Part shown: piece by piece, positions 8,812 to 40,595 of the stretch | Layout of the letters: the number at the start of each line of letters is the position of its first letter | Position numbering within the stretch: the stretch's first letter is position 1 | Assembly: GCA_036394195.1 (NCBI GenBank) | Contig: DASWFO010000199.1 | Span: 6,934 to 70,933, forward strand | Direction: 5' to 3' | Length of the DNA: 64,000 nt | From: Alphaproteobacteria bacterium | Lineage (GTDB): Bacteria; Pseudomonadota; Alphaproteobacteria; CACIAM-22H2 | Notes under the pieces: generated by a model | Seen by the model: the letters and a program-made list of their open reading frames with translations, nothing else | Told to the model about the DNA's origin: nothing | Database searches by the model: none | Translations under genes and position numbers: made by a program

Positions 8812-8833
8812 CGACAACCGGGAGGAGCGGCGA

Positions 8834-9457
8834 ATGAGCTGGAAACGGGGTTCGGAGTATTCGCAAGATCTGCGCGACATGGTGATCGAGACGCCCGGGT
8901 CGGTTCGCGAGGTGGCGAAGCGGTTTGGCGTAAGCCCGGCCTATGTATCGCGGGTCGTGACCCGGCTGCGCCTGACCGGTGGCCGCACGACGAAGCCGCG
9001 CGGCGGCCAACGCAAGCCGATCCTCGCCGGCCGGGAAGACGTCCTGCGCGCGCGCCTTGTCGAGCTTCCGGACACCACGTTGACCGAGCTGCAACGGTGG
9101 TTGATGGATACCCACGGGATCAAGATCTCGATCGGCGCGCTGTGGGGTTCATTGCGCCGGATGGGCTTCGGCACGCGCACGAGTCGCCGGCCCGAGGATG
9201 GCGCACGGCCGACAGCGTCGGAAGGCTTCGTGGCCACAATCGCCGCGCCATCGAAGCGGCCCTTCGTTGACACGCCGGTCACCTACGGCGCAGAGCTGCC
9301 GTCAAGTCTGCGCGAACTGGCACGCCTAGCCATGCAGCCGTCTGCCGAGGAATTCAGAGAGCCCGTGACGTCGATCCTGACAGAAGGTCAGCGTCGGGGA
9401 CCCGGTGAACAGGTCCGCGGTGTTTCACTGCAACCAAGGAGCATTCAGAATGAGTAG
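8834..9457 (+). mobile_element. IS630-family transposase N-terminal HTH fragment (second, diverged copy; C-terminal 80 aa unrelated, no DDE)
   Basis: The start MSWKRGSEYSQDLRDMVIETPGSVREVAKRFGVSPAYVSRVVTRLRLTGGRTTKPRGGQRKPILAGREDVLRARLVELPDTTLTELQRWLMDTHGIKISIGALWGSLRRMGFG aligns with the 3796-4194 product at roughly 65% aa identity. A GGAGGAG RBS is present. Confidence 0.65.
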
Positions 9458-10342: not shown

Positions 10343-10633
10343 ATGGTCAAAGCCCGGCTTGGAATGGTGCTTGTCTTGTCCCTGGCGCTGGTTCACGGCG
10401 CGACAGCCGGTGCTCGTCTCGGCGTCTGCGCGGCGGCCGTGCAAAATGCCGAACGCGAAATCTCCGTGTGGCCGCGTTGCTTTTCGGCCGCCGGGTTGCG
10501 GCAGACCACGATGATTCGTCTGCGCGCGGCCGCGCGGGCCGCCAAATCAGGCGACGAGAACCTGTGCTGGGAACACCTCGTTCTGTCCGGATACAACGTC
10601 GATTGTCCATCGGCCGATAGGAATGGCTCGTAA
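10343..10633 (+). CDS. Small secreted protein, two-Cys family (paralog of 1498-1779 product)
   Basis: The signal peptide is MVKARLGMVLVLSLALVHGATA. It carries the shared motif IRLRAAARAAKSGDENLCW. Confidence 0.55.
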   Translation: MVKARLGMVLVLSLALVHGATAGARLGVCAAAVQNAEREISVWPRCFSAAGLRQTTMIRLRAAARAAKSGDENLCWEHLVLSGYNVDCPSADRNGS

Positions 10634-11004
10634 GAGCGGCCGGGCGGCGTCCGTCAGGGCAACGGCCGCTCCAAGCCGATAAAGCGGACAATCCAGGTCC
10701 ACCACCGGCGCGCCGGTGGTCAGTCCGGGAATGCACTTCATTTTGTCAGGCGAAATCTGGCTAAAGCCTCATCGCGGTCGGCTCGCCGATGGCAAGCCTT
10801 TTGCTTGTCTTCCCGCGCGCGTGTCGCATTCGAACGCTTGTCGGTCCCTGAGCACTTGTCGAATCCGTTGGAAGTTTGCTGTTCCTGCCACTGATCGCGG
10901 TGTTTCTTGTGATGGACGTCACAGGGTCGCTTGTCATCGTCGGCCCCCGGGACCATTTAGCGGCGAACGCCGAACGCCAACTCCGTCTCGCGAGCAGTGT
11001 TCTT

Positions 11005-14000
11005 ATGGGTATCGTCCGCTTCGCTCTGCGCTTTCCGCACACCTTCTATGTGATGGCGGCACTGATTCTTTTTCTGGGAATCAGCGCGGTCACCACGACG
11101 CCGAAGGACATCTTTCCGAGCGTCAACATACCCGTGGTCAGCGTCATCTGGCAGTACACGGGGTTGACGCCGCAGGAGATGGAGCAGCGGATCACGACGT
11201 ACAGCGAATATTCCATCAGCTCCAACGTCAACGACATCAAGAATATGGAATCGGAAACGCTCGAAGGCATTTCCGTCGAGAAGATCTTTTTCCAGCCGAC
11301 CGTCAACATAGACCTGGCTGTCAGCCAGATCGTCTCGGCCAGCAATGCGATCCGCGCGTTGATGCCGGCGGGCGTCCAGCCGCCGATCGTCGTCCAGTAC
11401 AACGCGTCCAGCGTGCCGGTGCTCCAGCTGAGCCTCAGCTCGGATCGGCTGAACGAGCAGCAGCTCTATGACTACGGCATTTACCGGATTCGGCAGGCCC
11501 TCGCCCCGATCCAGGGGATCACCCTGCCGACCCCCTATGGCGGCAAATACCGGCAGATCATGGTCGATCTCGACACGCAGGCGCTGCGCGCGCAGGGGCT
11601 TACGCCCAACGACGTGGTGAATGCCGTCAACGCGCAAAGCCTGACCTTGCCGTCAGGCGACGCGAAGCTGGGGGATAAGCAATTCATCGTCAGCACGAAC
11701 GCAAACGCGCCAACGATCGACGCGCTCAACGACGTTCCGGTCCGGCAGGTGGGTCCAACCACCGTTCGCCTCAGCGATGTTGCGCATGTGCGCGACGGCT
11801 GGGCGGTGCAGCAGAACATTGTGCGCGCCGACGGACGCCGCTCGGTGCTGCTGACGATCATCAAGAGCGGCGACGCGTCGACGCTCGACGTCGTCAACCG
11901 CGTCAAGGCCGCCCTGCCCGACATCCAGAAGGCGGCGCCGCCGGGAATGAACATCCAGATGCTGTTTGACCAGTCTGTGTTCGTTCAATCGGCGATCGAC
12001 AGCGTGCTGCGCGAAGGGGCCATCGCCGCGGGCCTCACAGCGCTGATGATCCTTGTGTTCCTGGGATCGTGGCGCTCCACGCTCATCGTCATGGTCTCGA
12101 TTCCGCTGTCGATTCTGACGTCGATCGTCGTGCTGGCCGCACTTGGCCAGACGCTCAACACCATGACCCTCGGCGGCCTGGCCCTCGCCGTCGGCATCCT
12201 GGTCGACGATTCGACGGTCACGATCGAGAATACCCACCGGCTGTTCGAGGAAGGCGTTCAGTTCGATAAGGCCGTGCTCGAGGGTGCCGCCGGGATCGCC
12301 GTGCCGACCCTGATCTCCACCCTGGCCATCTGCTGCGTCTTCGTCGCCTTGTTCTTTCTCCAGGGAGCGCCTCGGTATCTGTTCACACCGCTCGGCATGG
12401 CGGTCGTGTTCGCCATGCTCGCGTCATACATGATCTCGCGCACGCTGACGCCGGTGATCATCCGCGTGCTGCTGCGCGGCGAGCAGGCCGCGCACGCGGG
12501 CGGGGGCGGCGGCCCGCTCGCGCGCTTTCACGATGGATTCAACCAGCGCTTCGATCGGTTCCGGGAGTTCTACGGCTGGCTGCTGCAAGGCGTGCTTCGC
12601 CGGCGGCTCCTGACGCCCGCGGTCGCCGGCAGCGTGGTGGCAGCCGCGGTCGCATTGTCGTTCTTCGTCGGGACGGATTTCTTTCCGCAGGTCGATGCCG
12701 GGCTCATTCAGATTCACGTGCGCGCGGCGCCGCGGACGCGCATCGAGCGGACCGAGCAAATCTTCCAGGCGGTCGAGAACGAAATCCGTCGCCAGATTCC
12801 CACACGGGACCTCGGGCCGATCCTGGACAACATCGGCATCCCGGCGCGCCTCTACAATCTGGCCTTTACCGACGGCACGATCACGGGCGTCAATGACGGC
12901 CAGATCCTGATCTCCCTGAAGGAGGGCCATGCGCCGACGGCGGATTATATCCGCAAGCTCCGTCTAGAGCTCCACCAGGCGTTCCCTGATGTGCTGTTCT
13001 ATTTCCAGCCCGCCGATATCGTGACGCAGATCCTGAATTTCGGCATCCCGTCGCAGGTCGACGTCCAGGTGCAAGGGCAGGACCGCGCCGGCAATATCGC
13101 CGTGGCCCAGGAGCTGCGGCGGCGGATGGCAGCTGTACCGGGGGTGGTCGATGGCCATGTCCAGCAGGAACTCGATGCGCCGCAGATGTACTACACCATC
13201 GACCGGACGCGCGCGCAGCAGCTCGGCCTGTCGCTGGTCAGCATCGCCAACAACCTCAATGTCAGCCTGAGCTCCTCCGAGCAGGTGACGCCGAACTTCT
13301 GGAGCGATCCGGTATCGGGAATTCCGTATTACCTGACCGTCCAGACGCCCGAATACCGAGTCGCCAGCATGAACGACGTCAACAATACCCCCCTGTCGAC
13401 CGCTGCCGCCGTGCAGGCGCCCGTCCCGAACGTGCTGGGCAACGTCGCCCGGGCGGAGCGCCGCGCGGTGGAGTCCGTCTACAACCACTCGAACATCCAG
13501 CCGGTCTACGACGTCTATGCCAATGTGCAGGCGCGCGACCTCGGCAGCGCCGCGCGTGCGATCGAGACGATCGTGCATGACCTGCAGGGGCAGATGAAAC
13601 CCGGTAATCGGATCGTCGTGCGCGGTCAGATTGACAGCATGCACTCCGCCTTCGGCAACCTGACCATCGGTCTGATCTTCGCCGCGGTCTTCGTCTACCT
13701 GCTCATGGTGGTGAACTATCAGAGCTTTCGCGACCCGTTCGCGGTCATCCTGGCGTTGCCGGGGGCCGCGAGCGGCATCGTGCTCATGCTCTTCGTCACG
13801 AGCACGGCGATCAGCGTGCCGTCGCTGATGGGCGCCATCATGTCGGTGGGCGTCGCGTCGGCCAACTCGATTCTGCTGGTGACCTTCGCCCGCGAGCTGC
13901 GGGCGGAGGGCCTGAGCGCCGTGGAGGCCGCCCTCGTGGCCGGCAAGACCCGGCTGCGCCCCGTGCTCATGACCGCGGCGGCTATGGTCGTCGGCATGAT

Positions 14001-21293: not shown

Positions 21294-21536
21294 ATGACTG
21301 CTGTTGCTCGCATGCTTCGCTTCGCCGTGCCGGCGCTGGCTCTTTTGGGCGCGGCCGCCTGCAGCGATAATCACGCCGACCAGCCGACCCGGCTCACCTG
21401 GGACCCCGCCAGCACGACCTATGACGGGACGGGCACCAACGGCGAAACCGATGTCGATGGCGCCGGAGCCGGCGGCCCGCGCGATCCGAACCGGTTACTG
21501 CCGCCGCGGCCGTACACGCCACCGGCGCAGCGCTAG
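21294..21536 (+). CDS. Small lipoprotein (80 aa)
   Basis: ATG at 21294; the signal and lipobox are MTAVARMLRFAVPALALLGAAAC, followed by a T/G/D/P-rich mature part. Confidence 0.5.
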   Translation: MTAVARMLRFAVPALALLGAAACSDNHADQPTRLTWDPASTTYDGTGTNGETDVDGAGAGGPRDPNRLLPPRPYTPPAQR

Positions 21537-21599
21537 CACCGGACGCTGGAACCGCGGAACACCGTAGTCGTTCTGCTTTGCGGCTTGGTGGGTCGCCGC

Positions 21600-21720
21600 T
21601 TCGCTAATGTCCTAGGGAAAAGAATTGCAGTATTGCTTTGGCGAAATTGAGCCTCTGCAATTCTTTTCCGCAGCGGCGACAAGCAGTTAACCTCGGAATT
21701 GCAGAATTGCAGCGGTCTCA
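21600..21720. repeat. Intergenic palindromic repeat element, copy A (nested inverted copies of AAAAGAATTGCAG)
   Basis: The sequence is GGGAAAAGAATTGCAGTATTGC...CTCTGCAATTCTTTTCC...GGAATTGCAGAATTGCAGCGG. The same element occurs in reverse orientation at 38815-38935. Confidence 0.7.
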
Positions 21721-21756
21721 GGGGGGCGGGCGGGGGGCGCGATGGCGGAGCCGAGG

Positions 21757-22767
21757 TCAGCCCTGCATCTCGATGCCGGCGATCTTGACCAGGTCGCGCC
21801 ACTGCTCGATCTCTTTCAGAAGATACGCCTGCGCGTCGTCGGGCGTGCTGATCCAGGGGTCGCTGCCGAAATTGTTGAAGAAGGTCTTCGCGTCTTCGGT
21901 CGCGACGATCTCGCTGAACCACCGGTTCAGCTGCAGGACGAGCGCGTGTGGCGCGCCGGCCGGCAGCATGGCACCCCACCACGACACCAGGTCCATCGGC
22001 ACGCCCTGTTCGGTCATGGTCGGCAGGTCGGGCCGCGCCTGCAGGCGCTGGCCCGAGCTCACGGCCAGGATGCGCGCGCGGCCGGCGGCTTCCTCGCGCA
22101 AGGCAAACACCGGATCGACCGGCGCATAGTCGAGCGCGCCGCTGATCAGCTCGGTCAGCATCTCGTTGGCGGTCTTGTAGACCACCTCGACGGGCTGCAG
22201 CCCGGCCGCGTTCCGGTACAAGGCCCCCATCGCCTTCGCCGACGAGTTCGATGTGCCGTAGGTCGCCTTCTCCTTCTTCGCCGCCATCGCCGCCGTCAAT
22301 TCGGCGAGCGTCGTCCATGGCCGGCCGCTGCCGACTGCGATCATGGTCGCTTGGCGGTTGAAGGTGGCGATCACCAGGAACGCCTGGCCGGCGTCCACCG
22401 AGTTGCGGAACAGATGCATGTTGGCGGCCAGCGCCGTGCCGCCGTTGATGTAGATGGTGCGGCCGTCGGGCTTGGCGCGGGCCACGTACTCGGTGGCGAT
22501 ATTGCTGTAAGCGCCGGGCTTGTTCTCGACGATGATCGGCTTGTCGAAATGGCGCTTCATGCGGTCGGCGAAGAACCGCACGATGGAATCGGCGCCACTC
22601 CCGGCGGGATAGCCGCAGATGAAGCGGACCTCCTGTCCGAACGTGCTCTGCGCCCGCGCGGGGACGGCCCCTAGGGCGGCGCCGGTGACAGCGAGGAGAG
22701 CGGCCGCGACCCGAACAAGCGTCGCCCCGGTCCTGATCGGAGATGCGATCAGGACCGGGAGCGGCAC
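21757..22767 (-). CDS. Tripartite tricarboxylate transporter substrate-binding protein (TctC/Bug family), orphan
   Basis: It has a signal peptide ending ...AVPARA-QS and the mature part FICGYPAGSGADSIVRFFADRMKRHFDKPIIVENKPGA... is typical Bug/TctC. The probable GTG start is near 22767; the listed ORF extends to 23052. Confidence 0.75.
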   Translation of the reverse strand: MPLPVLIASPIRTGATLVRVAAALLAVTGAALGAVPARAQSTFGQEVRFICGYPAGSGADSIVRFFADRMKRHFDKPIIVENKPGAYSNIATEYVARAKPDGRTIYINGGTALAANMHLFRNSVDAGQAFLVIATFNRQATMIAVGSGRPWTTLAELTAAMAAKKEKATYGTSNSSAKAMGALYRNAAGLQPVEVVYKTANEMLTELISGALDYAPVDPVFALREEAAGRARILAVSSGQRLQARPDLPTMTEQGVPMDLVSWWGAMLPAGAPHALVLQLNRWFSEIVATEDAKTFFNNFGSDPWISTPDDAQAYLLKEIEQWRDLVKIAGIEMQG

Positions 22768-22780
22768 GGCGTCGTGCGCG

Positions 22781-24955
22781 TCAGTTGGCGAGCGGATCCG
22801 GGCGGACCTGCACCTTGTAAATGCGCGGCGATTCTTTCGTGCCATTCTCGTTGTGGAACATCGTGCGGGTCCCCGACGTCGTCCACAGGCCCTTGCCCTT
22901 CCAGCCGGCGTTGGGATCGTCGATGCGGCCATCCACGTTCTTGGTGAAGAAGCCGAGCGGGTAGGGCACCCGCAGGTCGACGAGCTTGCCGTCGACGACC
23001 GCCAGCAGCGATTCGCTGCCGTTCGCCTGGGCGACCGGCACGTCGTTGCCAAGCCCGAGCGTATTGAAGCGGTCGACCCAGATGTAATAGGCGTGGTTGG
23101 CGCTGCCCGGATCGCTGACGCCGTTCATCTTAGGTCCGGGCATCTCGTACAGGGTCCAGCCCTCGGGGCAATGCTTGCCGGTGGCCGCGGCCGGGCCGTT
23201 CAGCGGGCCCTTGCACTTGCTGCGGTCGAAGCTGCCGATATGGCCGCTCGAGAAGACCGTCCACACCACGCCCTTGGTGTCGAGGTCGATCCCGCGCGAC
23301 CCGTACGCGATCTCCGGCGGCAGATAGACTTCGGTCAGGGCGGTCTCGGACGGGTTCGAGCCGGGAACCAGCCGCATGATGTAGCCGGGCTGGTCGACGC
23401 GAGAGAACCCGACATCCATCGCCTGACCCCAGATCGAATCGTCCACTGGGCTCGGCTGAATGCCGTAGAACGCGGCCATGATCCGCTTGTCCTTGTTCGG
23501 ATCGAGCGGGTCGTTCGGACCGACCCAGGCGTCGCGCTTGCCGTTGCCGTTGCTGTCGATGATGACCGGCGTCCAGCCTTGCGAGGCCTTCTCGTCGCCG
23601 GTCGCCTCGAACTTCTTCACGTCCAGCCAGCCGACCACGCCGCTTTGCGGGCCGCCGGCGCTGGTCCACAGGGTGCCCTTCTTGTCGAAGTAGAGGTGAT
23701 GCGTGCTGAAGCAAGTGTCGATCAGAGTCCATTTCTGCGTCTTCGGATCGTACATCGACAGCTGCCGCGGCGATTCGTTGAGCGGCGCCACCTTTGCCGA
23801 CGGATGGTCGGAGCCCGCCTTGCAGAAATCGGGGTTCGCGGGCTGACGGATGCGCGCGGTGAACCACACGCGGCCCTTCTCGTCCATCATCGGGTTGTGG
23901 ATGCTGGTGTGGCCGTCCCAGATCGGGTCGTCGCCCCAGTACACCGACGGCCCGTGCGGCAGGTCGAGCGAGGACGGCGTCTTCGGATCTCTGAACGGAT
24001 GCTTGATCTGGGTGGCCTTATTGCTCACCGGGTCGAACACCGGCACCAGATCCGTGCTCTCCTCGGGCGAGCCGTAGATGGCGCCGTTGGCGTTGACGCG
24101 CGGGTTGCGCTTGTCGCTCGAGACCGCGTCGTGCAGGTAGAATTTCGGCGTCGACCAGTCCCAGATGCTGACCACCATGTTGCGCTCGACGCCTTCCGGC
24201 CGCCGCGGCTTGGCCTTCGGCAGCTCGCCCTTTTGAATGCGGGCGGTCCAGTCGGCGTAGAGCTCGACGCCTTTGTCGCCGAGCCGGCCCATGGTCAAGG
24301 CCATGTTGGACATCGCCTGGCCGGATTGCAGGCGGCGCGTCCACTGGTCGATCGGGTCTTTGAACTCGGAGATGAGTTCCTTCGGCATCTGGCGGACACC
24401 GCGGGTGCCGAGCGCGTGGCAGGACTGGCAGGAGTTCTTCACCGTGTCGATCCAGTAGGCCTGGGTCTTCATCACGTCGGGGATGTGATTGCCCTTGTCG
24501 CCGGTACCGGGGAACTCGGACTTGGCCGGGATCTGGATCATCGAATACCAGTACATGCCCGGATAATATTCGGCGGCGGCGGCCTCGCTGGGGGCGGGCA
24601 CGGCGCGCAGGTTCATCAGCTTGCCGGGCTCGGTGTGCAGCTTCGGGGAATCGATGAGGCCGTAGCCCCGGACCCAGATGTCGTATGCGCCCTTCGGCAG
24701 GTCGGGAATGACGTAACGGCCCTGGTCATCGGTGACCACGACCTTGGCGAATTTCGTCGGCAGGTCGCGGGTCTCGGCGATCACCCACACGCCGGCTTCC
24801 GGCCCGTTCGGCCCGCTGACCACGCCGCCGATGTCGTCGGCGTCGATCTTGACCGCCGGGGCGGCTTGTTGCGCGTGTGCCGGGATCGCCGTCGTGCCGA
24901 GCAGGCCCGCCAGCATCGCCGCGAAATAGACATACGCCCGTGTCGTGGTCTTCAT
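22781..24955 (-). CDS. Large secreted protein with CarboxypepD_reg-like N-terminal domain and a CXXCH heme-c motif
   Basis: ATG at 24955 with a GGAGGAGAT RBS. The signal peptide is MKTTTRAYVYFAAMLAGLLGTTAIPAHA. It carries VVTDDQGRYVIPDLPKGAYDIWVRGYG (CarboxypepD_reg) and a single NSCQSCH motif. It is about 724 aa and W/G/D-rich (possible beta-propeller). Confidence 0.6.
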   Translation of the reverse strand: MKTTTRAYVYFAAMLAGLLGTTAIPAHAQQAAPAVKIDADDIGGVVSGPNGPEAGVWVIAETRDLPTKFAKVVVTDDQGRYVIPDLPKGAYDIWVRGYGLIDSPKLHTEPGKLMNLRAVPAPSEAAAAEYYPGMYWYSMIQIPAKSEFPGTGDKGNHIPDVMKTQAYWIDTVKNSCQSCHALGTRGVRQMPKELISEFKDPIDQWTRRLQSGQAMSNMALTMGRLGDKGVELYADWTARIQKGELPKAKPRRPEGVERNMVVSIWDWSTPKFYLHDAVSSDKRNPRVNANGAIYGSPEESTDLVPVFDPVSNKATQIKHPFRDPKTPSSLDLPHGPSVYWGDDPIWDGHTSIHNPMMDEKGRVWFTARIRQPANPDFCKAGSDHPSAKVAPLNESPRQLSMYDPKTQKWTLIDTCFSTHHLYFDKKGTLWTSAGGPQSGVVGWLDVKKFEATGDEKASQGWTPVIIDSNGNGKRDAWVGPNDPLDPNKDKRIMAAFYGIQPSPVDDSIWGQAMDVGFSRVDQPGYIMRLVPGSNPSETALTEVYLPPEIAYGSRGIDLDTKGVVWTVFSSGHIGSFDRSKCKGPLNGPAAATGKHCPEGWTLYEMPGPKMNGVSDPGSANHAYYIWVDRFNTLGLGNDVPVAQANGSESLLAVVDGKLVDLRVPYPLGFFTKNVDGRIDDPNAGWKGKGLWTTSGTRTMFHNENGTKESPRIYKVQVRPDPLAN

Positions 24956-25106: not shown

Positions 25107-26609
25107 TTACTCGGCGAGGGGCGGAAGGTTCAGCGCGCGGTCGACCATGGCGGTCGCGCGCTTGAAGTCGTAATTGCGGAAGACGTTGGACTTCACGATG
25201 AACGACGCGCCGCCGTAGAACTTCTCGTATTGCTGGTGCCGGCTGCCGAATTCGGTGCCGACGAAGTCCCACGCGAGGCGCATCAGCGCGATGCGGTCCC
25301 TGGCGCCGGTCGACGCCGATTGGAAGTAGCGCTCGATGTCCTTGGCCGCCTGCGGATTGGCGAAGTCCTTGGCCGAGGAGGGGAGGGTGATCAGGCCGGC
25401 GCCGGAGAGCTCGCGCACGATGTCGATGACGTGCGGGTTGATCTTCGACTGCAGCGCCATGACCGAGTAGAGCGACGCCTGGCTCGGCCACAACACGCCG
25501 TCGTCGTCGATGGTCGCGGTCGCCTCGTGCGAATAGAGCATGTTCTCGACGATGGAGGCGTAGGCGCACAGCTCGCCCATCTCGACCATCACCTGGGGCA
25601 CGGCGTCGTTGCCGGTCGCTTCGTTGAGGCGCTTGGCGATGCCGGCGAGGAAGCGCAGCTTGGTCGCATAGCGCGCCTGCGCCTGATGGTTGCCGTAGAG
25701 ATGCGCCGGCGTCTTGCGCCATTGGTCGCGCGTCAGCTCCACGTTGCGGTAGATGAACACGCGCTCCCACGGCACGAAGCAGTTGTCGAGGACGACGAAG
25801 CAGTCGGTCTCGTCGAAGCGGCTCGACAGCGGATAGTCGTAGGCGTTCGTGGCACCGAGCGCGAAGGGGCGCCGCGCATAAAGCCTGAGGCCCGGATCGT
25901 CGTTCGGAATCGCGACGTTGAATGCATACGCCTCGTCGCCGGGCTGAAGCGGATGGATGCAGGTCACTTGCACGTAGTCGGAATAGACGGCGCCGGTGGC
26001 CAGCTGCTGGCCGCCGGAGAGTGTGATGCCGGAATCGCTTTCCTTGACCACCCCGGCATAAAGCGTCGGATCCTTCTGCTTGTGCGCCGGCTTGCTGCGG
26101 TCGATCTGCGGCGGGACGATCGCATAGCTCACATAGGCGTGGGTGTCGCGGATGTGCCTGTAGAATTTCAGCAGGTTGTCCGCGAATTGCGGCCCGCCGG
26201 CGGCGAAGAACTGCGGCTTGGCGGCGTAGCCGGCGAAGAAATTCGAGACGTGATCGGGCGTTCGTCCCATCAGGCCGAAGCTCTGTTCGGCCCAGGCCTC
26301 GGCCGCGATCCGCTTGGCGCGCAGATCGGCGTGCGAGCGCGGGATCTGGTAGCAGCGCCACACCGGCCCGCCGGTGTCGGGCGAGGTGAAGGTCATCACC
26401 TCGCGATGCTCAGGCGACGCCGCATGATCGAAGAGGTGCGCCAGGGCGCGCGCGCCCTCGCGGAACGCCGGATGATCGACGGGGTTGGTGACCTTCTCGC
26501 CGTCTACATAGATGGCGCGCGGGGTGCATCGGAGATTGGAGAGGAAATCGTTACCGGTCCTAAGGCGTGTTGGTGCGGTCTTGGGCGTACCCGGGCTAGG
26601 CGGCGTCAT
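25107..26609 (-). CDS. 4-hydroxyphenylacetate 3-monooxygenase oxygenase-component (HpaB) family flavin monooxygenase
   Basis: 500 aa. The N-terminus ...TGNDFLSNLRCTPRAIYVDGEKVTNPVDHPAF and the C-terminal acyl-CoA-dehydrogenase-like fold blocks match the HpaB family. No reductase partner is nearby. Confidence 0.7.
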   Translation of the reverse strand: MTPPSPGTPKTAPTRLRTGNDFLSNLRCTPRAIYVDGEKVTNPVDHPAFREGARALAHLFDHAASPEHREVMTFTSPDTGGPVWRCYQIPRSHADLRAKRIAAEAWAEQSFGLMGRTPDHVSNFFAGYAAKPQFFAAGGPQFADNLLKFYRHIRDTHAYVSYAIVPPQIDRSKPAHKQKDPTLYAGVVKESDSGITLSGGQQLATGAVYSDYVQVTCIHPLQPGDEAYAFNVAIPNDDPGLRLYARRPFALGATNAYDYPLSSRFDETDCFVVLDNCFVPWERVFIYRNVELTRDQWRKTPAHLYGNHQAQARYATKLRFLAGIAKRLNEATGNDAVPQVMVEMGELCAYASIVENMLYSHEATATIDDDGVLWPSQASLYSVMALQSKINPHVIDIVRELSGAGLITLPSSAKDFANPQAAKDIERYFQSASTGARDRIALMRLAWDFVGTEFGSRHQQYEKFYGGASFIVKSNVFRNYDFKRATAMVDRALNLPPLAE

Positions 26610-30304: not shown

Positions 30305-32797
30305 ATGGGCTTGGACTACGCGTACAATTACGACGAGATGGTCGACGGCCGCCGGGCGATCCGCGCGGCCTGGCAGCCCTTGATCGGCGTGCTGCAGGCG
30401 ATGCCGAAAGGCGCGTTTGCCGAACGCGTCGAGCGCGTCCATCGCCAGCACGAGGACATATCGGTCGCCTATCGCATCGAGGCGGACACCGCCGCGAACG
30501 GCAATCGCCGGCCGTTCGACCTCCTGCCGATGGTGATCACCGCCGAGGAATGGAGCGACATCGAGATCGCGCTGGCGCAACGCGCGCGCCTGATGGACGC
30601 GGTCGTCACCGACATTTATGGCTCGCGCAAGCTCGTCGCCGACGGTCTCCTGCCGCCGGCGTTGATCTTCGGCAATCCGCGGTTCCTGCGCCCCTGCGCC
30701 GGGATGATGTCCGGCGGCGTGCCGCATGTTCACGCCTATGCGGCCGATCTCGTCCGCGCGCCGGACGGGTCGTGGAAGGTGCTCGCCGACCGGCTGCAGG
30801 CCCCGGCGGGCATCGGCTTTGCACTGCAGAACCGCAGCCTGCTGGCGCGCACCGTCCCGGAGCTGTTCCGCGCGCACATGGTGGAGCGGATCGAGCCGTT
30901 CTTCGACCGTTGGCGCGAGGCGTTGATGGACCTGTCGCCGCGCCGCGACGGGGCGCGCATCGCGGTCATGACGCCGGGCCCGTTCAATCCGGCGTTCTTC
31001 GAGCACGTCTATCTGGCACGCCAGCTCGGCGCGACGCTCGTGGAAGGCGCCGATCTCACGATGCGCTACGACCGCATTTTCGTGAAGACGCTCGGCGTGC
31101 TGCAGCAGGTCGACGTCGTCCTGCGGTTCATGGAGGACGATTACTGCGATCCGCTTGAGCTGCGCAGCACCTCGGTGCTCGGCGTCGCCGGCCTGCTTCA
31201 GGCGGTGCGTGCGGGAACTGTCGTCGTCGCCAACGCGCTCGGTGCCAGCGTCGCCGAGACGCCGGCGTTCAGGCCGTTTCTGCCCGCCATCGCCAGAGCG
31301 GTGCTTGGCGAAGAGCTGCTTATGGCCTCGGTCGACACCGAATGGCTGGGCGGCGGCTCGACCGCCGAGCGGACGGGTGAGTTGCCGCCGGATGTTTCGA
31401 TCCGCCCGGCCTTCCCGACACGGCGCGACGATCCGGCGGCGGGGGACGAGGCCGAGGGTGCTGCGCGCGAGGCTCTGCTCGACGATCTGAGGCGGCGGCC
31501 GTACATGTACGTCACCGAAAAGGCGGTCGCCCCATCGGTCATTCCGGTCTGGACGCCGGAGGCGCTGGTGCCGCGACCGTTGACGCTGCGCGTCTTCTGC
31601 ATCCGAGACGGCGACGCCTATCGCACCATGCCCGGCGGCTTCGCCCAGGTGCCCAATCGGGTGACCGGTGCGGTGGCCCCTCTGCGTCAGGTCGCGATGA
31701 GCAAGGACACGTGGGTGCTGCTCGGCGAAGATCGCGCGGTGGCCCCGGCGCATCGCGCCCCGCCCGCGGTCCAGGCGATCCGCCGCCCGACCGATGAGCT
31801 GCGCAGCCGCACCGCCGATGACGTGTTCTGGCTCGGCCGCTACATGGAGCGGCTCGACAATGCGGCGCGCATGATGCGCAGTGCCGCAATGCGGCTGACC
31901 GTCGAGCGGTTCGGGCCCGGCCAGCGCCAGGAGCTGCATTATCTGGCCGGTCTCCTCGTCGAAGCGGGCTTCATCGAGGCAGGGGCGGGTGAGATGATGT
32001 CCGACAGCGGCGGTCTGATGCTGGCGCTTTCGGCCGGGGCGGCGCGGGGGCCGGGCCTGGATGAGGCCTTCCGGGCGGTGCGGCGCATCGCGCAGGCGCT
32101 GCGCGACCGTCTGTCGAACGACATGTGGAATGTCGTGATCGGCAATCTCCGCGACGCTCGCGAGCGGATCCAATCACAGTCCGCCGAGGTCGACAGCTTC
32201 ATCGGCGCCCTCGACAACCTGATCGGCGTCATCGCCGCGTTCGGCGGCATGGTCGCGGAGAACATGACCCGCGGGGCGGGATGGCGTTTCCTCGATATCG
32301 GCCGGCGGTTGGAACGCGGCACCTACGAGAGCGCTATCGTCCGCGGCATCCTGGCGAGCCGGCGCGAAGATGCCGAAACCGCCCTCCATCTGGCTCTCGA
32401 GCTCAGCGACAGCACGATCACCTATCGCTCGCGCTATTTCACCGCCATCCAGACCGGACCGGTGGTCGATCTGATCCTCGCCGATGAGGCCAATCCGCGC
32501 GGCATCGCGTTTCAGATCCAGACCATCATCACGCATCTCAACGAGCTGGCACGCTCGTTCGAGCGCGTCAGCGACCGGCCGGAGCAGGCGCTCGCCGAAA
32601 TGGTCCTCGCCGCGATCCGCGGCGCCAAGATCGACCGGCTGGACGGGGCGGAGGATCAAGCAGCCCGGCGCGAGCTCTCCGAGCTCCTCGGTCATCTGTG
32701 CCACCAGTTTCTCGCCTTGTCCGAAGCGATCACGCGGGCCTATTTCTCCCATGTGCGCGCTCCCTACACGGTCGGCTACGGGTCCGCGCGGCTATGA
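30305..32797 (+). CDS. Circularly permuted type-2 ATP-grasp protein fused to alpha-E domain (DUF404/DUF407 + DUF403)
   Basis: The N-terminal half has YNYDEMVDGRRAIRAAWQPL...LPMVITAEEWSDIEIALAQRARLMDAVVTDIYG (CP-ATP-grasp). The C-terminal 300 aa has DDVFWLGRYMERLDNAARMMRSAA... (alpha-E). The start is uncertain: TTG at 30194, GTG at 30221 and ATG at 30305 are all candidates. Confidence 0.8.
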   Translation: MGLDYAYNYDEMVDGRRAIRAAWQPLIGVLQAMPKGAFAERVERVHRQHEDISVAYRIEADTAANGNRRPFDLLPMVITAEEWSDIEIALAQRARLMDAVVTDIYGSRKLVADGLLPPALIFGNPRFLRPCAGMMSGGVPHVHAYAADLVRAPDGSWKVLADRLQAPAGIGFALQNRSLLARTVPELFRAHMVERIEPFFDRWREALMDLSPRRDGARIAVMTPGPFNPAFFEHVYLARQLGATLVEGADLTMRYDRIFVKTLGVLQQVDVVLRFMEDDYCDPLELRSTSVLGVAGLLQAVRAGTVVVANALGASVAETPAFRPFLPAIARAVLGEELLMASVDTEWLGGGSTAERTGELPPDVSIRPAFPTRRDDPAAGDEAEGAAREALLDDLRRRPYMYVTEKAVAPSVIPVWTPEALVPRPLTLRVFCIRDGDAYRTMPGGFAQVPNRVTGAVAPLRQVAMSKDTWVLLGEDRAVAPAHRAPPAVQAIRRPTDELRSRTADDVFWLGRYMERLDNAARMMRSAAMRLTVERFGPGQRQELHYLAGLLVEAGFIEAGAGEMMSDSGGLMLALSAGAARGPGLDEAFRAVRRIAQALRDRLSNDMWNVVIGNLRDARERIQSQSAEVDSFIGALDNLIGVIAAFGGMVAENMTRGAGWRFLDIGRRLERGTYESAIVRGILASRREDAETALHLALELSDSTITYRSRYFTAIQTGPVVDLILADEANPRGIAFQIQTIITHLNELARSFERVSDRPEQALAEMVLAAIRGAKIDRLDGAEDQAARRELSELLGHLCHQFLALSEAITRAYFSHVRAPYTVGYGSARL

Positions 32798-33766: not shown

Positions 33767-35185
33767 ATGGTGGTATCGGCGTTCGATGAAATGGGCAGCG
33801 GTCCAGGGCTGCGCCCATCCTATGCGGCGGTCAACGACTGGATGGCCCAGACGCCGGCGGCGATCTTCGAGATCAAGCGCCGCGAGGCCGAATTCTTCTT
33901 CCGCAAGACCGGGATCACCTTCGCCGTCTACACCGAGGGCGGCGATCCGGAGCGGCTCATTCCCTTCGACATCATCCCGCGGGTGCTCGACGGCCAGGAG
34001 TGGGAGTTCCTCACCCGTGGGCTGAAGCAGCGGGCACATGCCCTGAACGCCTTCATCCGCGACGTCTACGGCCCGCAGGAGTTCATCCGCGCCGGCAAAA
34101 TCCCCGCCGACCTGATCCTGAAAAATCCCAGCTTCGTGCAGGCGATGGTCGGCCTCGACGTCCCCGCCGGGATCTACACTCATGTCGCCGGCATCGACAT
34201 CGTGCGCGTCAGCTCCACCGAGTTCTACGTCCTCGAGGACAACTGCCGCACGCCGTCCGGCGTCTCGTACATGATCGAGAACCGCGAGATCATGTCGCGG
34301 CTGTTCCCCGATCTCTTCGCCCGGTCCCGCGTCCGGCCGGTGTCGCACTATCCGCAGGAACTGCTCGACACGCTCCGCTCCGTCAGCCCGCGAAGCTGCG
34401 AAGCCGAGCCGACGGTCGTGCTGCTGAGCCCCGGCTCCTACAACAGCGCCTACTACGAGCACACGTTCCTCGCCGACGAGATGGGCATTGAGATCGTCGA
34501 GGGCGCCGATCTCGTCGTTGATCAGGACGTCGTGTACATGCGCACCACGCGCGGATTGGAGCGGGTCGATGTCATTTACCGGCGGATCGACGATGCGTTT
34601 GTCGATCCGCAGGTGTTCAACCCGGACTCGCTGCTGGGCGTGGCCGGATTGATGGCGGCGTACCGCGCCGGCAACGTGACCGTCGCCAACGCGGTCGGGG
34701 CGGGCATCGCCGACGACAAGGCGGTTTATACCTACGTGCCCGAAATGATCCGCTTCTTCCTCGGCGAGGAGCCGATCCTGCAGAACGTGCCGACCTGGAA
34801 ATGCGGCGATGCCCAGGACTGCGCCTATGTGCTCGACCACTTGGCCGAGCTGGTGGTCAAGGACGTCCACGGATCGGGCGGCTACGGAATGCTCGTGGGC
34901 CCGCATGCCACCGCCGCGGAACGGGCCGCGTTCGCCGACACCATCCGCGCCCGTCCCGGCCGCTACATTGCGCAGCCGACCTTGAGCCTCTCGACCTGCC
35001 CGACCTTCGTCGACAAGGGGATCGCCCCCCGGCACGTCGACCTGCGGCCGTTCGTGCTGTGCGGCCGCGAGATCCACATCGTGCCCGGCGGCCTCACGCG
35101 CGTGGCGCTGCGCGAGGGCTCGCTGGTGGTGAATTCGAGCCAGGGTGGGGGTACGAAGGACACCTGGGTCGTGGATCTGGCGTGA
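33767..35185 (+). CDS. Circularly permuted type-2 ATP-grasp protein (stand-alone, DUF404/DUF407)
   Basis: 472 aa. ...YAAVNDWMAQTPAAIFEIKRREAEFFFRKTGITFAVYTEGGDPERLIPFDIIPRVLDGQEWEFLTRGLKQRAHALNAFIRDVYG... is paralogous to the N-terminal half of the 30305 product. Confidence 0.85.
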   Translation: MVVSAFDEMGSGPGLRPSYAAVNDWMAQTPAAIFEIKRREAEFFFRKTGITFAVYTEGGDPERLIPFDIIPRVLDGQEWEFLTRGLKQRAHALNAFIRDVYGPQEFIRAGKIPADLILKNPSFVQAMVGLDVPAGIYTHVAGIDIVRVSSTEFYVLEDNCRTPSGVSYMIENREIMSRLFPDLFARSRVRPVSHYPQELLDTLRSVSPRSCEAEPTVVLLSPGSYNSAYYEHTFLADEMGIEIVEGADLVVDQDVVYMRTTRGLERVDVIYRRIDDAFVDPQVFNPDSLLGVAGLMAAYRAGNVTVANAVGAGIADDKAVYTYVPEMIRFFLGEEPILQNVPTWKCGDAQDCAYVLDHLAELVVKDVHGSGGYGMLVGPHATAAERAAFADTIRARPGRYIAQPTLSLSTCPTFVDKGIAPRHVDLRPFVLCGREIHIVPGGLTRVALREGSLVVNSSQGGGTKDTWVVDLA

Positions 35186-35197
35186 TGTAGCGAATCA

Positions 35198-36232
35198 ATG
35201 CTGAGCCGCACCGCGGAAAATCTTTACTGGCTGGCCCGCTACGTGGAGCGCGCGGAGAACATCGCGCGCCTGCTCGACGTGGCGCTCAGGATGTCCGGCA
35301 TGCCGTTTGACCCCGGGACCGGCCGCAGCGAATGGCGTTCCACCATCATCGCGTCGGGCTGCGAGAAAAGCTTCTTCGCGAAATACCAAACGCCGACCGC
35401 CGAGACGGTGATCCAGCACCTGGTGCGCGATCTCGACAATCCGTCGTCGATCCTCTCCTGCCTGGCGACCGCGCGGCGCAACTCGCGGGCGGTGCGCACG
35501 GCGCTGACCGTCGACATGTGGGAGGCGATCAACGGCACATGGCTCGCCGCGCGCGGCTTCGGCGACGACGCGTTCCGGGTCAGCGACATCGGACGGTTTC
35601 TCGACTGGGTGAAGGAGCGCTCGACCCTGTTCAGCGGGGCGGTGCTCGGCACCATGCTGCAGGCCGACGCGTTCTGGTTCACGCGCCTCGGCACCTATGT
35701 CGAGCGCGCCGACGCCACGGCGCGCATCCTCGACGTCAAATACAACGTGCTGCTGCCGGGGCACGAGCCCGTGGGCGGAACGCTCGACCATTATCAGTGG
35801 GCGGCCATCCTGACGTCGGTGTCGTCCCGCCGCGCCTATCAATGGCTCTATCACGACCGGATCAAGCCGTGGCTCGTCGCCGAGCTGCTGATCCTGCGAC
35901 CGGAGATGCCGCGCTCGCTGATCACCTGCGCGCGCGAGATCAACTACTATCTCGACGTCATCGGCGGGACCTATGATTCCCGCCGCGAGTGTCACGAGCT
36001 CGCCGGCCAGATCCTCCGCCAGCTGAACCGCACCAAGGTGGAGCAGATCATGGGCGGGCTGCACGAGTTCCTGACCGAGTTCATCGATAGCAACGTCGAG
36101 CTCGGCCACAAGATCTCGCGGCAGTATTTCCAGCTCGCCCATCTGACGCGGGCCGCAGCACCGGCCGCGGGTCAAACCCAGACTCAAACCCAGAGCCAGG
36201 GCCACACGCAGACCCAGTCGCAACAGGCTTAG
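35198..36232 (+). CDS. Alpha-E domain protein (DUF403), stand-alone, with low-complexity TQTQTQSQ tail
   Basis: MLSRTAENLYWLARYVERAENIARLLDVALRMS... is paralogous to the C-terminal part of the 30305 product. Confidence 0.85.
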   Translation: MLSRTAENLYWLARYVERAENIARLLDVALRMSGMPFDPGTGRSEWRSTIIASGCEKSFFAKYQTPTAETVIQHLVRDLDNPSSILSCLATARRNSRAVRTALTVDMWEAINGTWLAARGFGDDAFRVSDIGRFLDWVKERSTLFSGAVLGTMLQADAFWFTRLGTYVERADATARILDVKYNVLLPGHEPVGGTLDHYQWAAILTSVSSRRAYQWLYHDRIKPWLVAELLILRPEMPRSLITCAREINYYLDVIGGTYDSRRECHELAGQILRQLNRTKVEQIMGGLHEFLTEFIDSNVELGHKISRQYFQLAHLTRAAAPAAGQTQTQTQSQGHTQTQSQQA

Positions 36233-38299: not shown

Positions 38300-38782
38300 A
38301 TGCCGAACCGCGTGATGATCCTGAACGGTCCCAATCTCAATCTGCTCGGCGTGCGCGAGCCGAAGGTCTACGGCTCGACCACGCTGAAGGCGATCGAAGA
38401 CAGCTGCCGTGCGTTCGCCAAGCTGGCCGGCCTGTCGCTGGCGTTCCATCAAACCAACCACGAAGGCCAGCTCATCGATTGGGTGCAGTCGGCGCGGCAG
38501 ACCGCCGATGCGATCATCATCAACCCCGCCGGCCTGACCTTCACCTCGGTCAGCCTGATGGATGCGTTGAAGATGTTCGAGGGCCCGATCATCGAGCTGC
38601 ATATCTCGAACATCCATGCGCGCGAAGCGACGTACCACAACTCGAAGATCTCGCCGGTGGCGAAGGCGGTGATCTGCGGTCTCGGCGCCTACGGCTATGT
38701 CGTGGCGCTGCAATGTGTGGCCCGCCTGTTCGACGCCTTGCCCGCGAGCCTGGCCGAGCCGCTTCGCGTCGGCCCGGTGTAA
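38300..38782 (+). CDS. aroQ: Type II 3-dehydroquinate dehydratase
   Basis: MPNRVMILNGPNLNLLGVREPKVYGSTTL...HQTNHEGQLIDWVQ...IIINPAGLTFTSVSLMDAL...ELHISNIHAREATYH is the canonical AroQ. Confidence 0.85.
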   Translation: MPNRVMILNGPNLNLLGVREPKVYGSTTLKAIEDSCRAFAKLAGLSLAFHQTNHEGQLIDWVQSARQTADAIIINPAGLTFTSVSLMDALKMFEGPIIELHISNIHAREATYHNSKISPVAKAVICGLGAYGYVVALQCVARLFDALPASLAEPLRVGPV

Positions 38783-38814
38783 GAGGACCAGCGAGCGGGG
38801 GCCGGTACCCCCGA

Positions 38815-38935
38815 AACGGGTGCAATACTGCAATTCTTTTTCTAAGCCGCTGAAATGACGCGCGAATAACGCCAAAAAAGAATTGCAGCGGTTCGATTTC
38901 GCGAAAACGGCTGCAATTCTTTTCGAGCGCATCGC
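38815..38935. repeat. Intergenic palindromic repeat element, copy B (inverted relative to copy A)
   Basis: GGGTGCAATACTGCAATTCTTTTTC-(32 nt)-AAAAAAGAATTGCAGCGG-(26 nt)-GGCTGCAATTCTTTTCG. GCAATACTGCAA is the reverse complement of TTGCAGTATTGC in copy A. Confidence 0.7.
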
Positions 38936-39008: not shown

Positions 39009-40595
39009 TTATCCAGATTTCTGGCGGCGCGCGGTCGGGCCGATGGTCAGGGCGGCGCAGACGGCGCTGAGCAGCGCCAGGCCGGCCGCGATCAGCATCA
39101 CGACCCGGAAGCTCGCGACGAAGGCTTCGCTCAGCGTTCGCTCCAGAAGCTGCCGCTGCGCGCCGCCGATGCCGGGCGGGACAGCCGCCTCGGCGAGCTT
39201 GGGCACTTCGGCCAATAGCGCGCGCCGCAGCTCGGGGTCGACCTGCAGGTCCGCAAGGCGCTGCTCGAGGGCCGAACCGAACACGCTCACCGCGACGGCG
39301 CCCAGCAGCGCCACCGCCAGCAGGGCCGCGACCCGCGCGGTCGCATTGTTGATCCCGGATGCCACTCCGGCGTGGCGGCTGTCGACCGCGGCCATGACGG
39401 TCGTGGTGAGCGGTGCCACGCTGACCGCCATGCCGAAGCCGAGCACCGCCATGGGTGGGAAGACCGTCACCCAATAGGAGCCCCCGATCCCGGCCAGCGC
39501 GAACAGCGCAAATCCGAGCGCCGCGATGACCGGGCCGACGATCAGCGGCGGCCGCGCGCCATAGCGGGCGATGAGGCCGCCCGACCAGCGCGACAGCCCG
39601 CCCATGATCAGCGTGAACGGAAGGAACGCGGCACCCGCGAGGGCGGCCGAATAACCCTGGATCTTGATCAGGTTGAAGGGCACGAAAAACATGGCGCCGC
39701 TCAGCGCGAAGTAGAGGGGCAGGGTGATCGCGTTGGCGCCGCTGAACGCCGGCGAGCGGAACAGGCGAAGCTGCATCATCGGCGATCGGGTGTGCGCTTC
39801 CCACGACACAAACAGGCCGAGGATCGCGACCCCGGCGAAGAGAGCGAGCAGCACCATGGTGTCGCGCCAGCCGACGTCGGACGCCTCGGTCAGGCCGTAA
39901 GCGAGGGCGCCGAGCCCGGCCGTGGCCAAGGCGCCGCCGGGCCAATCGATCGCTCCGTCTTCCTCGTCGCGGCTCTCCGGCACCCGCCAATAGGCCAGCG
40001 CCAGCGTCACTGCGGCGATCGGCAGATTGAGGAAGAAGATCGCCCGCCACGACCAGGCATCGACCAGCCAGCCGCCGACCACCGGTCCCAGCGCCGTCGT
40101 GAGTGCCGAAAATCCCGCCCACGTTCCGATCGCACGGCCGCGCTCGGCCTCCGGGAAGGCGGCGCTGATGATCGCAAGGCTGCAGGGCACCATGAGCGCA
40201 CCACCGATGCCCTGGGCAGCGCGCGCCGCGATCAGCGCGGCGGAGCTCGGTGCGAGCCCGCACGCCGCGGACGCGGCGGCGAACAGCATCACGCCCAGCC
40301 CGAAGACGCGCCTCCGGCCGAACCGGTCGCCCGCGGCACCGCCGATCAGGATCAAGGCGCTCAGCATCAGCATGTAGCCGTTGGCGATCCATTGCACCCC
40401 GCGAAGCGAGACAGCGAGATCGGTCTGGATCGCGGGCAAGGCCACGTTGACCACCGAGCCGTCGATGAAGGCGAGGCTGGAGCCGAGGATCGTTGCCGCC
40501 AGCACCCACGGCTTGGCGCGCTCGGCGCACCCGGCCGCCGCCGGTGCGGAGCGGATCACACCGGCGTCGCACGGCGTCTGCGTGAGGCCGACCAT
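39009..40595 (-). CDS. MFS transporter, DHA2 (14-TMS drug:H+ antiporter) family
   Basis: 528 aa with 14 predicted TM helices. The MFS motif is GGAAGDRFGRRRVFGLG. The overlapping 615-aa ORF in another frame (38842-40689) is not supported. Confidence 0.8.
   Translation of the reverse strand: MVGLTQTPCDAGVIRSAPAAAGCAERAKPWVLAATILGSSLAFIDGSVVNVALPAIQTDLAVSLRGVQWIANGYMLMLSALILIGGAAGDRFGRRRVFGLGVMLFAAASAACGLAPSSAALIAARAAQGIGGALMVPCSLAIISAAFPEAERGRAIGTWAGFSALTTALGPVVGGWLVDAWSWRAIFFLNLPIAAVTLALAYWRVPESRDEEDGAIDWPGGALATAGLGALAYGLTEASDVGWRDTMVLLALFAGVAILGLFVSWEAHTRSPMMQLRLFRSPAFSGANAITLPLYFALSGAMFFVPFNLIKIQGYSAALAGAAFLPFTLIMGGLSRWSGGLIARYGARPPLIVGPVIAALGFALFALAGIGGSYWVTVFPPMAVLGFGMAVSVAPLTTTVMAAVDSRHAGVASGINNATARVAALLAVALLGAVAVSVFGSALEQRLADLQVDPELRRALLAEVPKLAEAAVPPGIGGAQRQLLERTLSEAFVASFRVVMLIAAGLALLSAVCAALTIGPTARRQKSG

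Follow-up and report, generated by a model that had tools for sequence, protein, structure and literature searches.

Introduction

Repetitive extragenic palindromic (REP) sequences and bacterial interspersed mosaic elements (BIMEs) occur in Enterobacteria and in Pseudomonas, where they are mobilized by RAYT/TnpA-REP (RAYT, REP-associated tyrosine transposase). REP sequences are presumed to act at the 3' ends of messenger RNAs, either as stabilizers or as terminators. The Rhizobium-specific intergenic mosaic element (RIME) is said to be about 100-170 bp long, to contain large palindromes, and to be present in low tens of copies, with unknown function. The subject of this report is an intergenic palindromic element present in two copies, A and B, in a 64 kb stretch of DNA from an uncultured alphaproteobacterium (hereafter, the window). 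The window lies within the 84.8 kb soil-type metagenome contig k141_5590121 of ENA ERZ27293319, of which about 73.5 kb was read. An initial annotation, made from the sequence of the window, had proposed a REP/RIME-like family of small repeats around copy A. The repeated intergenic palindrome proved genuine, with at least four loci, but it can be assigned to neither REP, RIME nor any Rfam family. The family is real and previously undescribed, has a three-box, two-hairpin architecture, and belongs to no named family, because the defining REP features that were tested, a self-palindromic unit and GTAG, are absent. The most fitting class for it is that of a new REP/BIME/RIME-type family, where RIME is compared by its general description only.

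Results

Two inverted copies of an oriented, three-box element

The exact 13-mer AAAAGAATTGCAG occurs five times in the window, each time within one of the two element sites (Table 1). Dinucleotide shuffles, searched with up to two mismatches, contain 0.33 occurrences on average, and none of 100 reached five. The remaining matches that resemble GAATTGCAG (at 20529, 26161-26216 and 61071, scored on a 9-mer/11-mer core) lie inside coding sequence and occur at chance frequency. Since the G+C content of the window is 62-71%, both copies are conspicuous as AT-richer stretches.

In copy A, AAAAGAATTGCAG is followed after 24 nt by CTGCAATTCTTTT, and GGAATTGCAGAATTGCAG lies further along at 21695-21712. 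The initial annotation had described a 13-bp inverted repeat at 21600-21720 able to form a hairpin. Sequence and count bear this out, with one minor error, the spacer between the arms being 24 rather than 28 nt. A second copy had been reported in inverted orientation about 17 kb away, and it was found there as copy B, at 38793-38929, the same element on the opposite strand. The example offered for the relationship is also right: TTGCAGTATTGC (21625-21636) is the reverse complement of GCAATACTGCAA (38822-38833). The loops of the two copies are 87% alike (comparison I8), which together with their common order of parts shows that A and B are homologous over about 125-137 nt, and are not two chance palindromes (alignment A1).

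The family unit is oriented, spans about 125-137 nt, and keeps one order of parts in all four copies, that is, in A (read on the plus strand), in B (read on the minus strand), and in the two further members described below. A left arm, (G)GAAAAGAATTGCAG, is followed by a loop of 22-24 nt (24 in A, 22 in B) that includes GCGAAAT in A and B, by the right arm CTGCAATTCTTTT, by a spacer of 24-35 nt, by a third box, ATTGCAG(T/A)ATTGCA, oriented like the left arm, and by a G-rich tail or small GC hairpin. The arms are 13-17 bp long, and the paired inverted boxes fold into a stem of 15-20 bp with an A-run before it and a T-run after it. In each of the four copies the orientation of the boxes alternates (> < >), and the linkers between them measure 22-24 and 24-35 nt. 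Box centers are 31-33 bp apart for the first and second boxes and 50-52 bp apart for the second and third (41/49 in copy A). The GGGGGGCGGGCGG of the tail of element A also occurs in one of the further members, and G-run/C-run hairpins equivalent to the tail of element B are present in both, so that three of the four copies have one. No open reading frame (ORF) that might encode a small peptide is conserved across the four copies in their alignment (A4).

Additional members and a family model

A scan of 241 million metagenome records with the arm pattern returned 14 loci, of which two, L044 (WNFI01195958.1) and L047 (WNFI01229257.1), belong to the family. Both come from one other metagenome, and both carry the whole element with its parts in the same order. 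Their contigs are 73-95 kb long, with 8-14 kb of each read, and each has a single copy of the scan pattern. Of the other 12 loci, 11 are low-GC terminators and one (L045) is from Planctomycetota.

In L047, the third box is split by a 2.6 kb insertion sequence (IS) of the IS1595 family (ISNwi1-like), located at 10509-13123 by an inverted-repeat search. It encodes the transposase domains PF12762 and PF12760 as well as extra ORFs, and has 36-nt terminal repeats, GGGAAT(A/G)TTGGCGATTGCAAACCAAAGCCTAAGTCT, flanked by an 8-bp target duplication, CAGTATTG. Excising it in silico restores CCATTGCAGTATTGCACGGATTTTCGGGGGGCGGGCGG, which is the family consensus; this restored form of L047 is the one used in comparisons of the tail and of flanking genes. 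The AT-rich third box may simply be the preferred AT-rich target of this IS in a GC-rich genome. Derivation of the element from the IS was considered and rejected, as the IS is inserted into the third box and has different ends (GGGAATATTGGCGATTGCAAACC...).

Alignment A4, of all four sequences, has 54 invariant columns. These include 25 of the 26 columns in the arms and 13 of the 14 in the third box, but about 16 of the remaining 101 or so (about 16%). A covariance model, R1, was built from A4 and run on the window with filters off. It scores the two window sites at 137 and 118 bits, L044 at 149 bits, and the IS-interrupted L047 at 88 bits, while everything else in the window scores 14 bits or less, except for the palindrome's own matches on the reverse strand. 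The pattern GAATTGCAG-N20-26-CTGCAATTC is an alternative to R1 for family searches.

Searches of other collections did not connect the element to anything described. Rfam gave no match over the whole window at gathering thresholds, and for copy A (21450-21850) at E<=10 it gave noise matches to microRNA models only. BLAST of the element against plasmids and phages gave no match, and a 31-nt box query at E<=10 gave only chance matches. In viral contigs, the hairpin pattern had three unrelated matches; the 15-mer GAATTGCAGTATTGC had more than 120 chance matches there and is uninformative. A literature search by element sequence returned matches to eukaryotic primers only. An assembly artefact was rejected, as three contigs carry locus B.

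Hairpin structure and the pattern of constraint

The hairpin first supposed for copy A is predicted to be very stable on either strand. For the four copies, a hairpin of about 60 nt folds at -24.5 to -32.1 kcal/mol, with z scores of -4 to -6 against shuffled sequences. Hairpin A gives -25.7 kcal/mol (z -4.1) on the plus strand and -24.5 (z -5.0) on the minus strand, and hairpin B gives -28.3 kcal/mol (z -5.2) on the minus strand and -26.8 (z -4.0) on the plus strand.

RNAalifold finds 13 invariant arm pairs, 2-5 basal pairs, and an inner helix of 3-4 bp. The basal pairs vary yet still pair (GG/CC, GCGG/CUGC, GCCGG/UCGGC), as does the inner helix (GCUU/GAGC, GCG/CGC, CGCU/AGCG). In A4, 93.8% of cells are paired, and four pairs, located in the stem base and inner helix, have changed on both sides. 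Four of 500 shuffles match either the count of both-side changes or the percentage paired, and sliding the partners abolishes the signal. This is suggestive of selection on pairing itself, in RNA or in single-stranded DNA. The third box is frozen in sequence even though it has no partner in the most stable fold.

Because the boxes are invariant while the flanking pairs vary but stay paired, the box sequence and the hairpin both appear to be constrained. A plain structural hairpin would tolerate compensated changes in its arms, and a plain operator in duplex DNA would not need complementarity in its flanks. By analogy with REP sequences and RAYT, and with attC-type sites, the combination would be the pattern of a protein that reads sequence in the context of a hairpin. 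It could also arise from a functional RNA hairpin that is still copied by a box-specific enzyme.

Host and genomic context

The contig of the window carries recA, a TPR/GT41 gene, alaS, a flagellin gene, and Porin_2 and Porin_O_P porins. Its RecA shares 93-94% identity with metagenome proteins and 87-90% with proteins from metagenome-assembled genomes (MAGs) of Rhodospirillales, Stellaceae and Aliidongia, and the host is therefore taken to be an uncultured, Rhodospirillales-like alphaproteobacterium.

In all four copies, the flanking genes are convergent and mutually unrelated. On the assumption that about one quarter of intergenic regions are convergent, we estimate the chance of four out of four at about 0.004. 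The genes that flank A and B are listed in Table 1; the call of the small ORF before hairpin A is tentative because it has no Pfam hit. Identical flanking genes are present in the samples JGI 3300002917, SRR5258708 and SRR10360644. L044 lies between a plus-strand unknown gene and a minus-strand extensin-like_C gene, and L047, after removal of its IS, between a P450 gene (plus strand) and an unknown minus-strand gene. The hairpin end of the unit faces a gene in every copy, with 81, 85, 80 and 11 nt between stop codon and arm. The alternative raised in the initial annotation, that the repeat is part of the 5' untranslated region of a single duplicated gene, is ruled out because all copies lie at gene 3' ends, between convergent genes that are unrelated to one another.

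Among the relatives compared, no pair of filled and empty sites was obtained. The closest homologs of the transporter next to copy B are 76% identical and those of the dehydroquinase 79% (with one 96% match that has no contig); they are too distant or not syntenic. The recA-anchored loci of relatives (RecA 93-94%) keep the order nitroreductase-recA-GT41-alaS, but the aroQ-MFS segment (MFS, major facilitator superfamily) and the element are absent from them; this segment is missing from all relatives examined.

One relative (L179) has the gene order sensor kinase, VIT1, about 1 kb, nitroreductase, recA. By comparison with it and with a second relative (L182), the window's contig has about 45 kb between VIT1 and nitroreductase-recA (window positions ~1-40600). 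Both elements lie in these 45 kb, as do a resistance-nodulation-division (RND) efflux operon and porin, flagellin, HpaB and ATP-grasp/transglutaminase genes. Relatives L178 and L180 have yet other genes between VIT1 and the recA region, and this region looks like a variable segment.

Table 1. Positions of the element's parts, neighboring genes, box matches, and palindromes with similar arms. Positions are those of the window except in the last two rows, where they refer to the loci named. GC3, G+C content at third codon positions.
Feature	Position	Strand	Remarks
Small ORF with lipoprotein-like signal peptide	21294..21536	+	MTAVARMLRFAVPALALLGAAAC...; reads into hairpin A, stop 81 nt before arm; moderate GC3
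Element A hairpin	21616..21669	+	GG+AAAAGAATTGCAG (21618-21630), 24-nt loop (21631-21654), CTGCAATTCTTTT (21655-21667)+CC
Element A spacer	21668..21695	+	~10 nt shorter than in other copies (alignments A1, A4)
Element A third box	21696..21712	+	GAATTGCAGAATTGCAG, two overlapping GAATTGCAG units, direct to left arm; aligns with ATTGCAGTATTGCA of others
Element A G-rich tail	21719..21739	+	CAGGGGGGCGGGCGGGGGGCG; 17 nt from stop of convergent TctC gene
TctC-family solute receptor gene	21757..23052	-	PF03401 5.5e-31; GC3 0.84; convergent on A; true start downstream of longest-ORF start
Type II 3-dehydroquinate dehydratase gene	38300..38782	+	PF01220 2.2e-53; convergent on element B; gene call on source contig
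Element B tail	38797..38812	-	Small GC hairpin GGGGGCCGGTACCCCC; 14 nt after dehydroquinase stop codon
Element B third box	38820..38841	-	AAAAAGAATTGCAGTATTGCAC read on - strand
Element B spacer	38842..38875	-	GGCGTTATTCGCGCGTCATTTCAGCGGCTTAG..., partly conserved in L044 and L047 (A4)
Element B hairpin	38876..38923	-	Arms 38911-38923 and 38876-38888; 22-nt loop 38889-38910
MFS (EmrB/QacA-type) transporter gene	39009..40595	-	PF07690 7.5e-57; reads into hairpin B, stop 85 nt before arm; gene call on source contig
Exact AAAAGAATTGCAG matches	21618-21630, 21655-21667, 38828-38840, 38876-38888, 38911-38923	+, -, -, +, -	
Palindromes, Acidimicrobiales MAG OZ244195.1	L016 6074-6124, L027 2441-2491, L028 5537-5587		GGAAGAATTGCAGTAGAAAACGAGG...CCTCGTTTTCTACTGCAATTCTTCC
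Palindromes, Planctomycetota MAG CAZDNN01 + JGI contig	L003 5542-5575, L009 5095-5128, L045 834-867		GGAAAGAATTGCAGAGTTG...CAACTCTGCAATTCTTTCC

Discussion

A proposed mosaic repeat at converging 3' ends

The reading we prefer, tentatively, is that of a small, lineage-specific mosaic repeat family, REP/BIME-like or RIME-like, in which a hairpin at converging 3' ends is combined with box-specific recognition. The hairpin would form at the 3' ends of converging transcripts, or in single-stranded DNA, and would act as a two-way terminator or as an mRNA-protecting barrier at the 3' end, as REP/BIME stem-loops do. The invariant box would be the recognition sequence of a putative protein, most plausibly a transposase or nuclease, and this box-specific enzyme would have placed copies of the unit at new, safe positions between convergent genes.

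Several features fit the 3'-end part of this proposal. On both strands, the stem has an A-run before it and 4-6 consecutive T after it, and the hairpin comes a short distance past a stop codon (11 to about 85 nt, with the extended stem), the position of canonical intrinsic terminators. The symmetry of A-run, stem and T-run, together with the site between convergent stops, is compatible with a two-way terminator. Judging from REP/BIME stem-loops, we consider formation or protection of 3' ends the hairpin's most likely effect at the level of the host. Such a role leaves unexplained why identical sequence occurs at unrelated loci, and why there is a third box.

A number of observations weigh against the mosaic-repeat reading. 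The copies are few, two in the 73.5 kb or so read of the source contig and four overall. R1 found no copy in about 133 kb of further DNA, namely 9.5 kb more of the source contig, two Logan contigs from the same species, five loci around recA in relatives, and two other alphaproteobacterial loci. The exact-arm pattern, run on 185,579 species-representative genomes, hit 32 loci, none of them alphaproteobacterial and almost all of them single chance terminators in low-GC Firmicutes or Bacteroidota, a result that lends no support to the high copy number that is a REP hallmark. At the density observed, a genome might hold some tens of copies or, just as well, a handful. No transposase or RAYT gene was noticed near the copies among those window genes that were scanned, in a window that is not exhaustively annotated. 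The flanks of the hairpin are complementary instead of forming direct repeats, and the target-site duplication for which the initial annotation had suggested a check does not flank it. As a classical intrinsic terminator the hairpin is poor, with its 22-24 nt loop, its A-U rich stem base, and its T-run of 4-6. A consensus terminator scan called nothing at either element site, and the same genome uses ordinary, unique GC-rich terminators at 43990-44050 and 50810-50850. Finally, the covariation rests on four related sequences, which makes for weak statistics.

Alternatives

Taken as sites in duplex DNA, the three boxes could be a binding-site cluster for a sequence-specific protein, for example a regulator, a recombinase, or a nucleoid or partition protein, with the hairpin a by-product of inverted sites. 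We consider this unlikely. It would account for boxes that are almost invariant next to the rest of the alignment, including a third box that lies outside the hairpin, and the distances between box centers are near whole numbers of helical turns. However, this phasing amounts to about two independent distances because the copies are homologous. The 22-24 bp between the inverted boxes would be unusual for a dimeric operator, and the covariation flanking and inside the arms preserves a pairing that a duplex-DNA site does not need. With four of four copies between convergent 3' ends, there is no promoter to regulate, and a scan found no sigma-70-like promoter. As for the identity of a possible regulator, TGCAAT-AC-TGCAAT is loosely like the direct TGCATC repeats to which Fur of Bradyrhizobium japonicum binds (PMC3037356), but the likeness fails on sequence (TGCAAT against TGCATC) and on spacing. 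Fur/Mur operators in Bradyrhizobiaceae have three direct TGCATC hexamers, or the 19-bp MRS palindrome, in the promoter (PMC3037356, PMC1698941). A Fur/Mur box was rejected on sequence and on location, the element lying between 3' ends. Likewise rejected, by eye, was a sigma-54 promoter reading of GGTGCAATACTGCA, for which the GG/GC spacing is wrong in L044 and the fit to consensus poor.

Distinctly unlikely, in our judgment, is a purely selfish element of the miniature inverted-repeat transposable element (MITE) or palindrome type, with no host function, tolerated between convergent genes alone, and with arms that are the terminal inverted repeats of a putative IS. The invariant 13-nt inverted arms do resemble terminal repeats, but the unit is built as > < ... 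> and not as > ... <, and its homology runs about 70 nt past the second arm. All four copies occupy the least harmful type of intergenic site, and those in the window lie in a segment apparently variable between relatives. However, the flanks of the hairpin form complementary pairs (GG/CC, GCGG/CTGC, GCCGG/TCGGC), and no target-site duplication is present. Neither the window nor plasmids, phages or viral contigs yielded a parent IS that has these ends; the IS in L047 has different ends and sits in the element rather than giving rise to it. A widespread transposase whose end sequence is conserved could explain why the same AAGAATTGCAG arms occur in multi-copy palindromes of Acidimicrobiales and Planctomycetota (see below), although that cross-phylum match is largely imposed by the search pattern.

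We regard as improbable a small RNA (sRNA) gene, or an sRNA derived from a 3' untranslated region, read toward the hairpin as its terminator, with the CUGCAAU(UCUUUU) box as seed and with paralogous members. Such a gene would explain why about 130 nt are conserved in full length at unrelated loci, why one conserved box is unpaired, and why three of four copies have a second small GC hairpin at their opposite end. On the strand opposite to the element's orientation, the stable terminal hairpin is followed by 3-4 U. Since the palindrome has the same terminator-like form whichever strand is read, this is no evidence for one strand, and the U-tail is just 4 nt and fully paired with the A-run. No Rfam family is matched even at E<=10, and a scan found no promoter-like site. 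The semi-conserved block resembling a -10 element (TGAAAT/TGAACT/TGAAAG/TTAACT) lacks the invariant A2 and, in L047, T6.

Similar palindromes in other phyla

The exact-arm scan of genomes found multi-copy perfect palindromes with AAGAATTGCAG arms in two high-GC genomes (65-71% GC), one from Acidimicrobiales and one from Planctomycetota (Table 1). Planctomycetota loci L009 and L045 are the same locus, identical in two independent assemblies (L045 on the JGI contig), which also speaks against an assembly artefact. The outer arm (G)GAA(A)GAATTGCAG is shared by both types and by the window element. As in the element, an identical outer arm of 11-12 nt is preceded by G(G), and the hairpin is AT-rich. 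Unlike the element, these are perfect palindromes of 42-51 bp, with loops of 2-6 nt and different inner arms, and they have no third box, spacer or G-rich tail. Two of the three Acidimicrobiales loci are clearly between convergent genes, the third being ambiguous, and this type has GTAG beside the inner stem, as REP sequences do. One Planctomycetota locus is downstream of a stop codon between same-strand genes, and the other lies, according to a frame scan, inside a long ORF with high GC3.

Chance overlap is plausible, because the shared 11-mer was itself the query and families of palindromic repeats are very many. The extra shared bases (the preceding GG, and the following TA or TTG) are insufficient for a claim of homology. 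It is highly improbable that the box GGAAA(A)GAATTGCAG is the recognition site of one widespread putative hairpin-specific enzyme or host factor, with the alphaproteobacterial three-box element and the palindromes of the two other phyla as branches of a single mobile hairpin family that crosses phyla and settles between convergent genes.

Other features of the window and its relatives

The terminator after recA (43985-44050) has the form GACGGGCGGCTC...GAGCCGCCCGCTCTGTTTTT and is conserved in relative L178, and the one at 50810-50850 is a two-way terminator, AAAAGAAAAAAGCGCGGGAGAGTTTCTCCCGCGCTTCATTT. Small toxin-antitoxin-like genes lie on the minus strand at 41400-42500, between the nitroreductase gene and recA; a PhdYeFM antitoxin was called on the source contig, and the others are suggested by a reading of the sequence. 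A 300-nt direct repeat with 71% identity, at 3806-4105 and 8826-9125, has its copies 5 kb apart; they overlap small unannotated ORFs near the flagellin and porin genes and are probably paralogous small genes. The segments at 31171-31873 and 34627-35272 are paralogous pairs of circularly permuted ATP-grasp and Alpha-E genes adjoining a DUF2126-transglutaminase gene, and their nucleotide repeats (D4 and D5) are about 70% identical. In relative L180, positions 1480-1700 hold a different intergenic repeat, present several times in about 200 nt, with the form GTCATTGCGAG(C/G)...AGCGA(C/A)GAAGCAATCCAGG and with ATTGC/GCAAT hairpins. It is unrelated to the element, and resembles a repeat that we take to be common in Bradyrhizobium and Rhodopseudomonas genomes.

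Significance

If the mosaic-repeat reading is correct, the family is one more lineage-specific addition to a large and poorly catalogued class of bacterial intergenic palindromic repeats. The finding opens no long-standing question. The element does separate two constraints cleanly, three invariant boxes on the one hand and covarying pairs around them on the other, and is thus well suited to testing whether a recognizing protein, RNA structure, or both maintain such repeats. For annotation, model R1 marks gene 3' boundaries, and it may flag accessory DNA in this clade.

Comparison with known systems

Uptake sequences, such as the DNA uptake sequence (DUS) of Neisseria and the uptake signal sequence (USS) of Pasteurellaceae, resemble the element in presenting an exact box of 10-13 nt in inverted pairs downstream of genes; their inverted pairs often form terminators. 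Unlike DUS and USS, which occur about once per kb and also inside genes, the element's box occurs in the window only within the two elements. A MITE differs in architecture: in the element, inverted arms bound only the first 50 nt or so, and the unit ends in a direct, not an inverted, copy of the box. Bidirectional intrinsic terminators share the symmetric A-run, stem and T-run, the position 11-85 nt past a stop codon, and a stability of -24 to -32 kcal/mol. They do not account for an arm sequence that is identical at unrelated loci, or for an extra conserved 70 nt with a third box.

RIME is similar by general description only, as an alphaproteobacterial intergenic mosaic with large palindromes, and membership is not claimed; the host here is an uncultured, Rhodospirillales-like bacterium and not a member of the Rhizobiaceae.

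The differences from REP sequences are specific. One box alone, AAAAGAATTGCAG(TATTGCA), amounts to no stable palindrome, forming at most a 4-bp TGCA/TGCA mini-stem; a stable hairpin needs two inverted boxes. GT(A/G)G is missing from the foot of the palindrome, where the arms are followed by TATT, CCGT, CGCT, AGGC, CGGT and similar; of the 12 boxes, 6 contain GTAT and none contains GTAG. The genome has 66% GC but the stem is AT-rich, and the copy number looks low, at 2 per 73.5 kb or so. The likenesses concern organization. Like BIMEs, the element consists of short conserved boxes whose orientation alternates (> < >), joined by linkers both short and long, and it is strictly extragenic, at gene 3' ends and between convergent genes in four of four copies. 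Its paired boxes fold into long hairpins, as do the doublets known as REPINs, and, as in REP sequences, sequence and structure both appear to be constrained.

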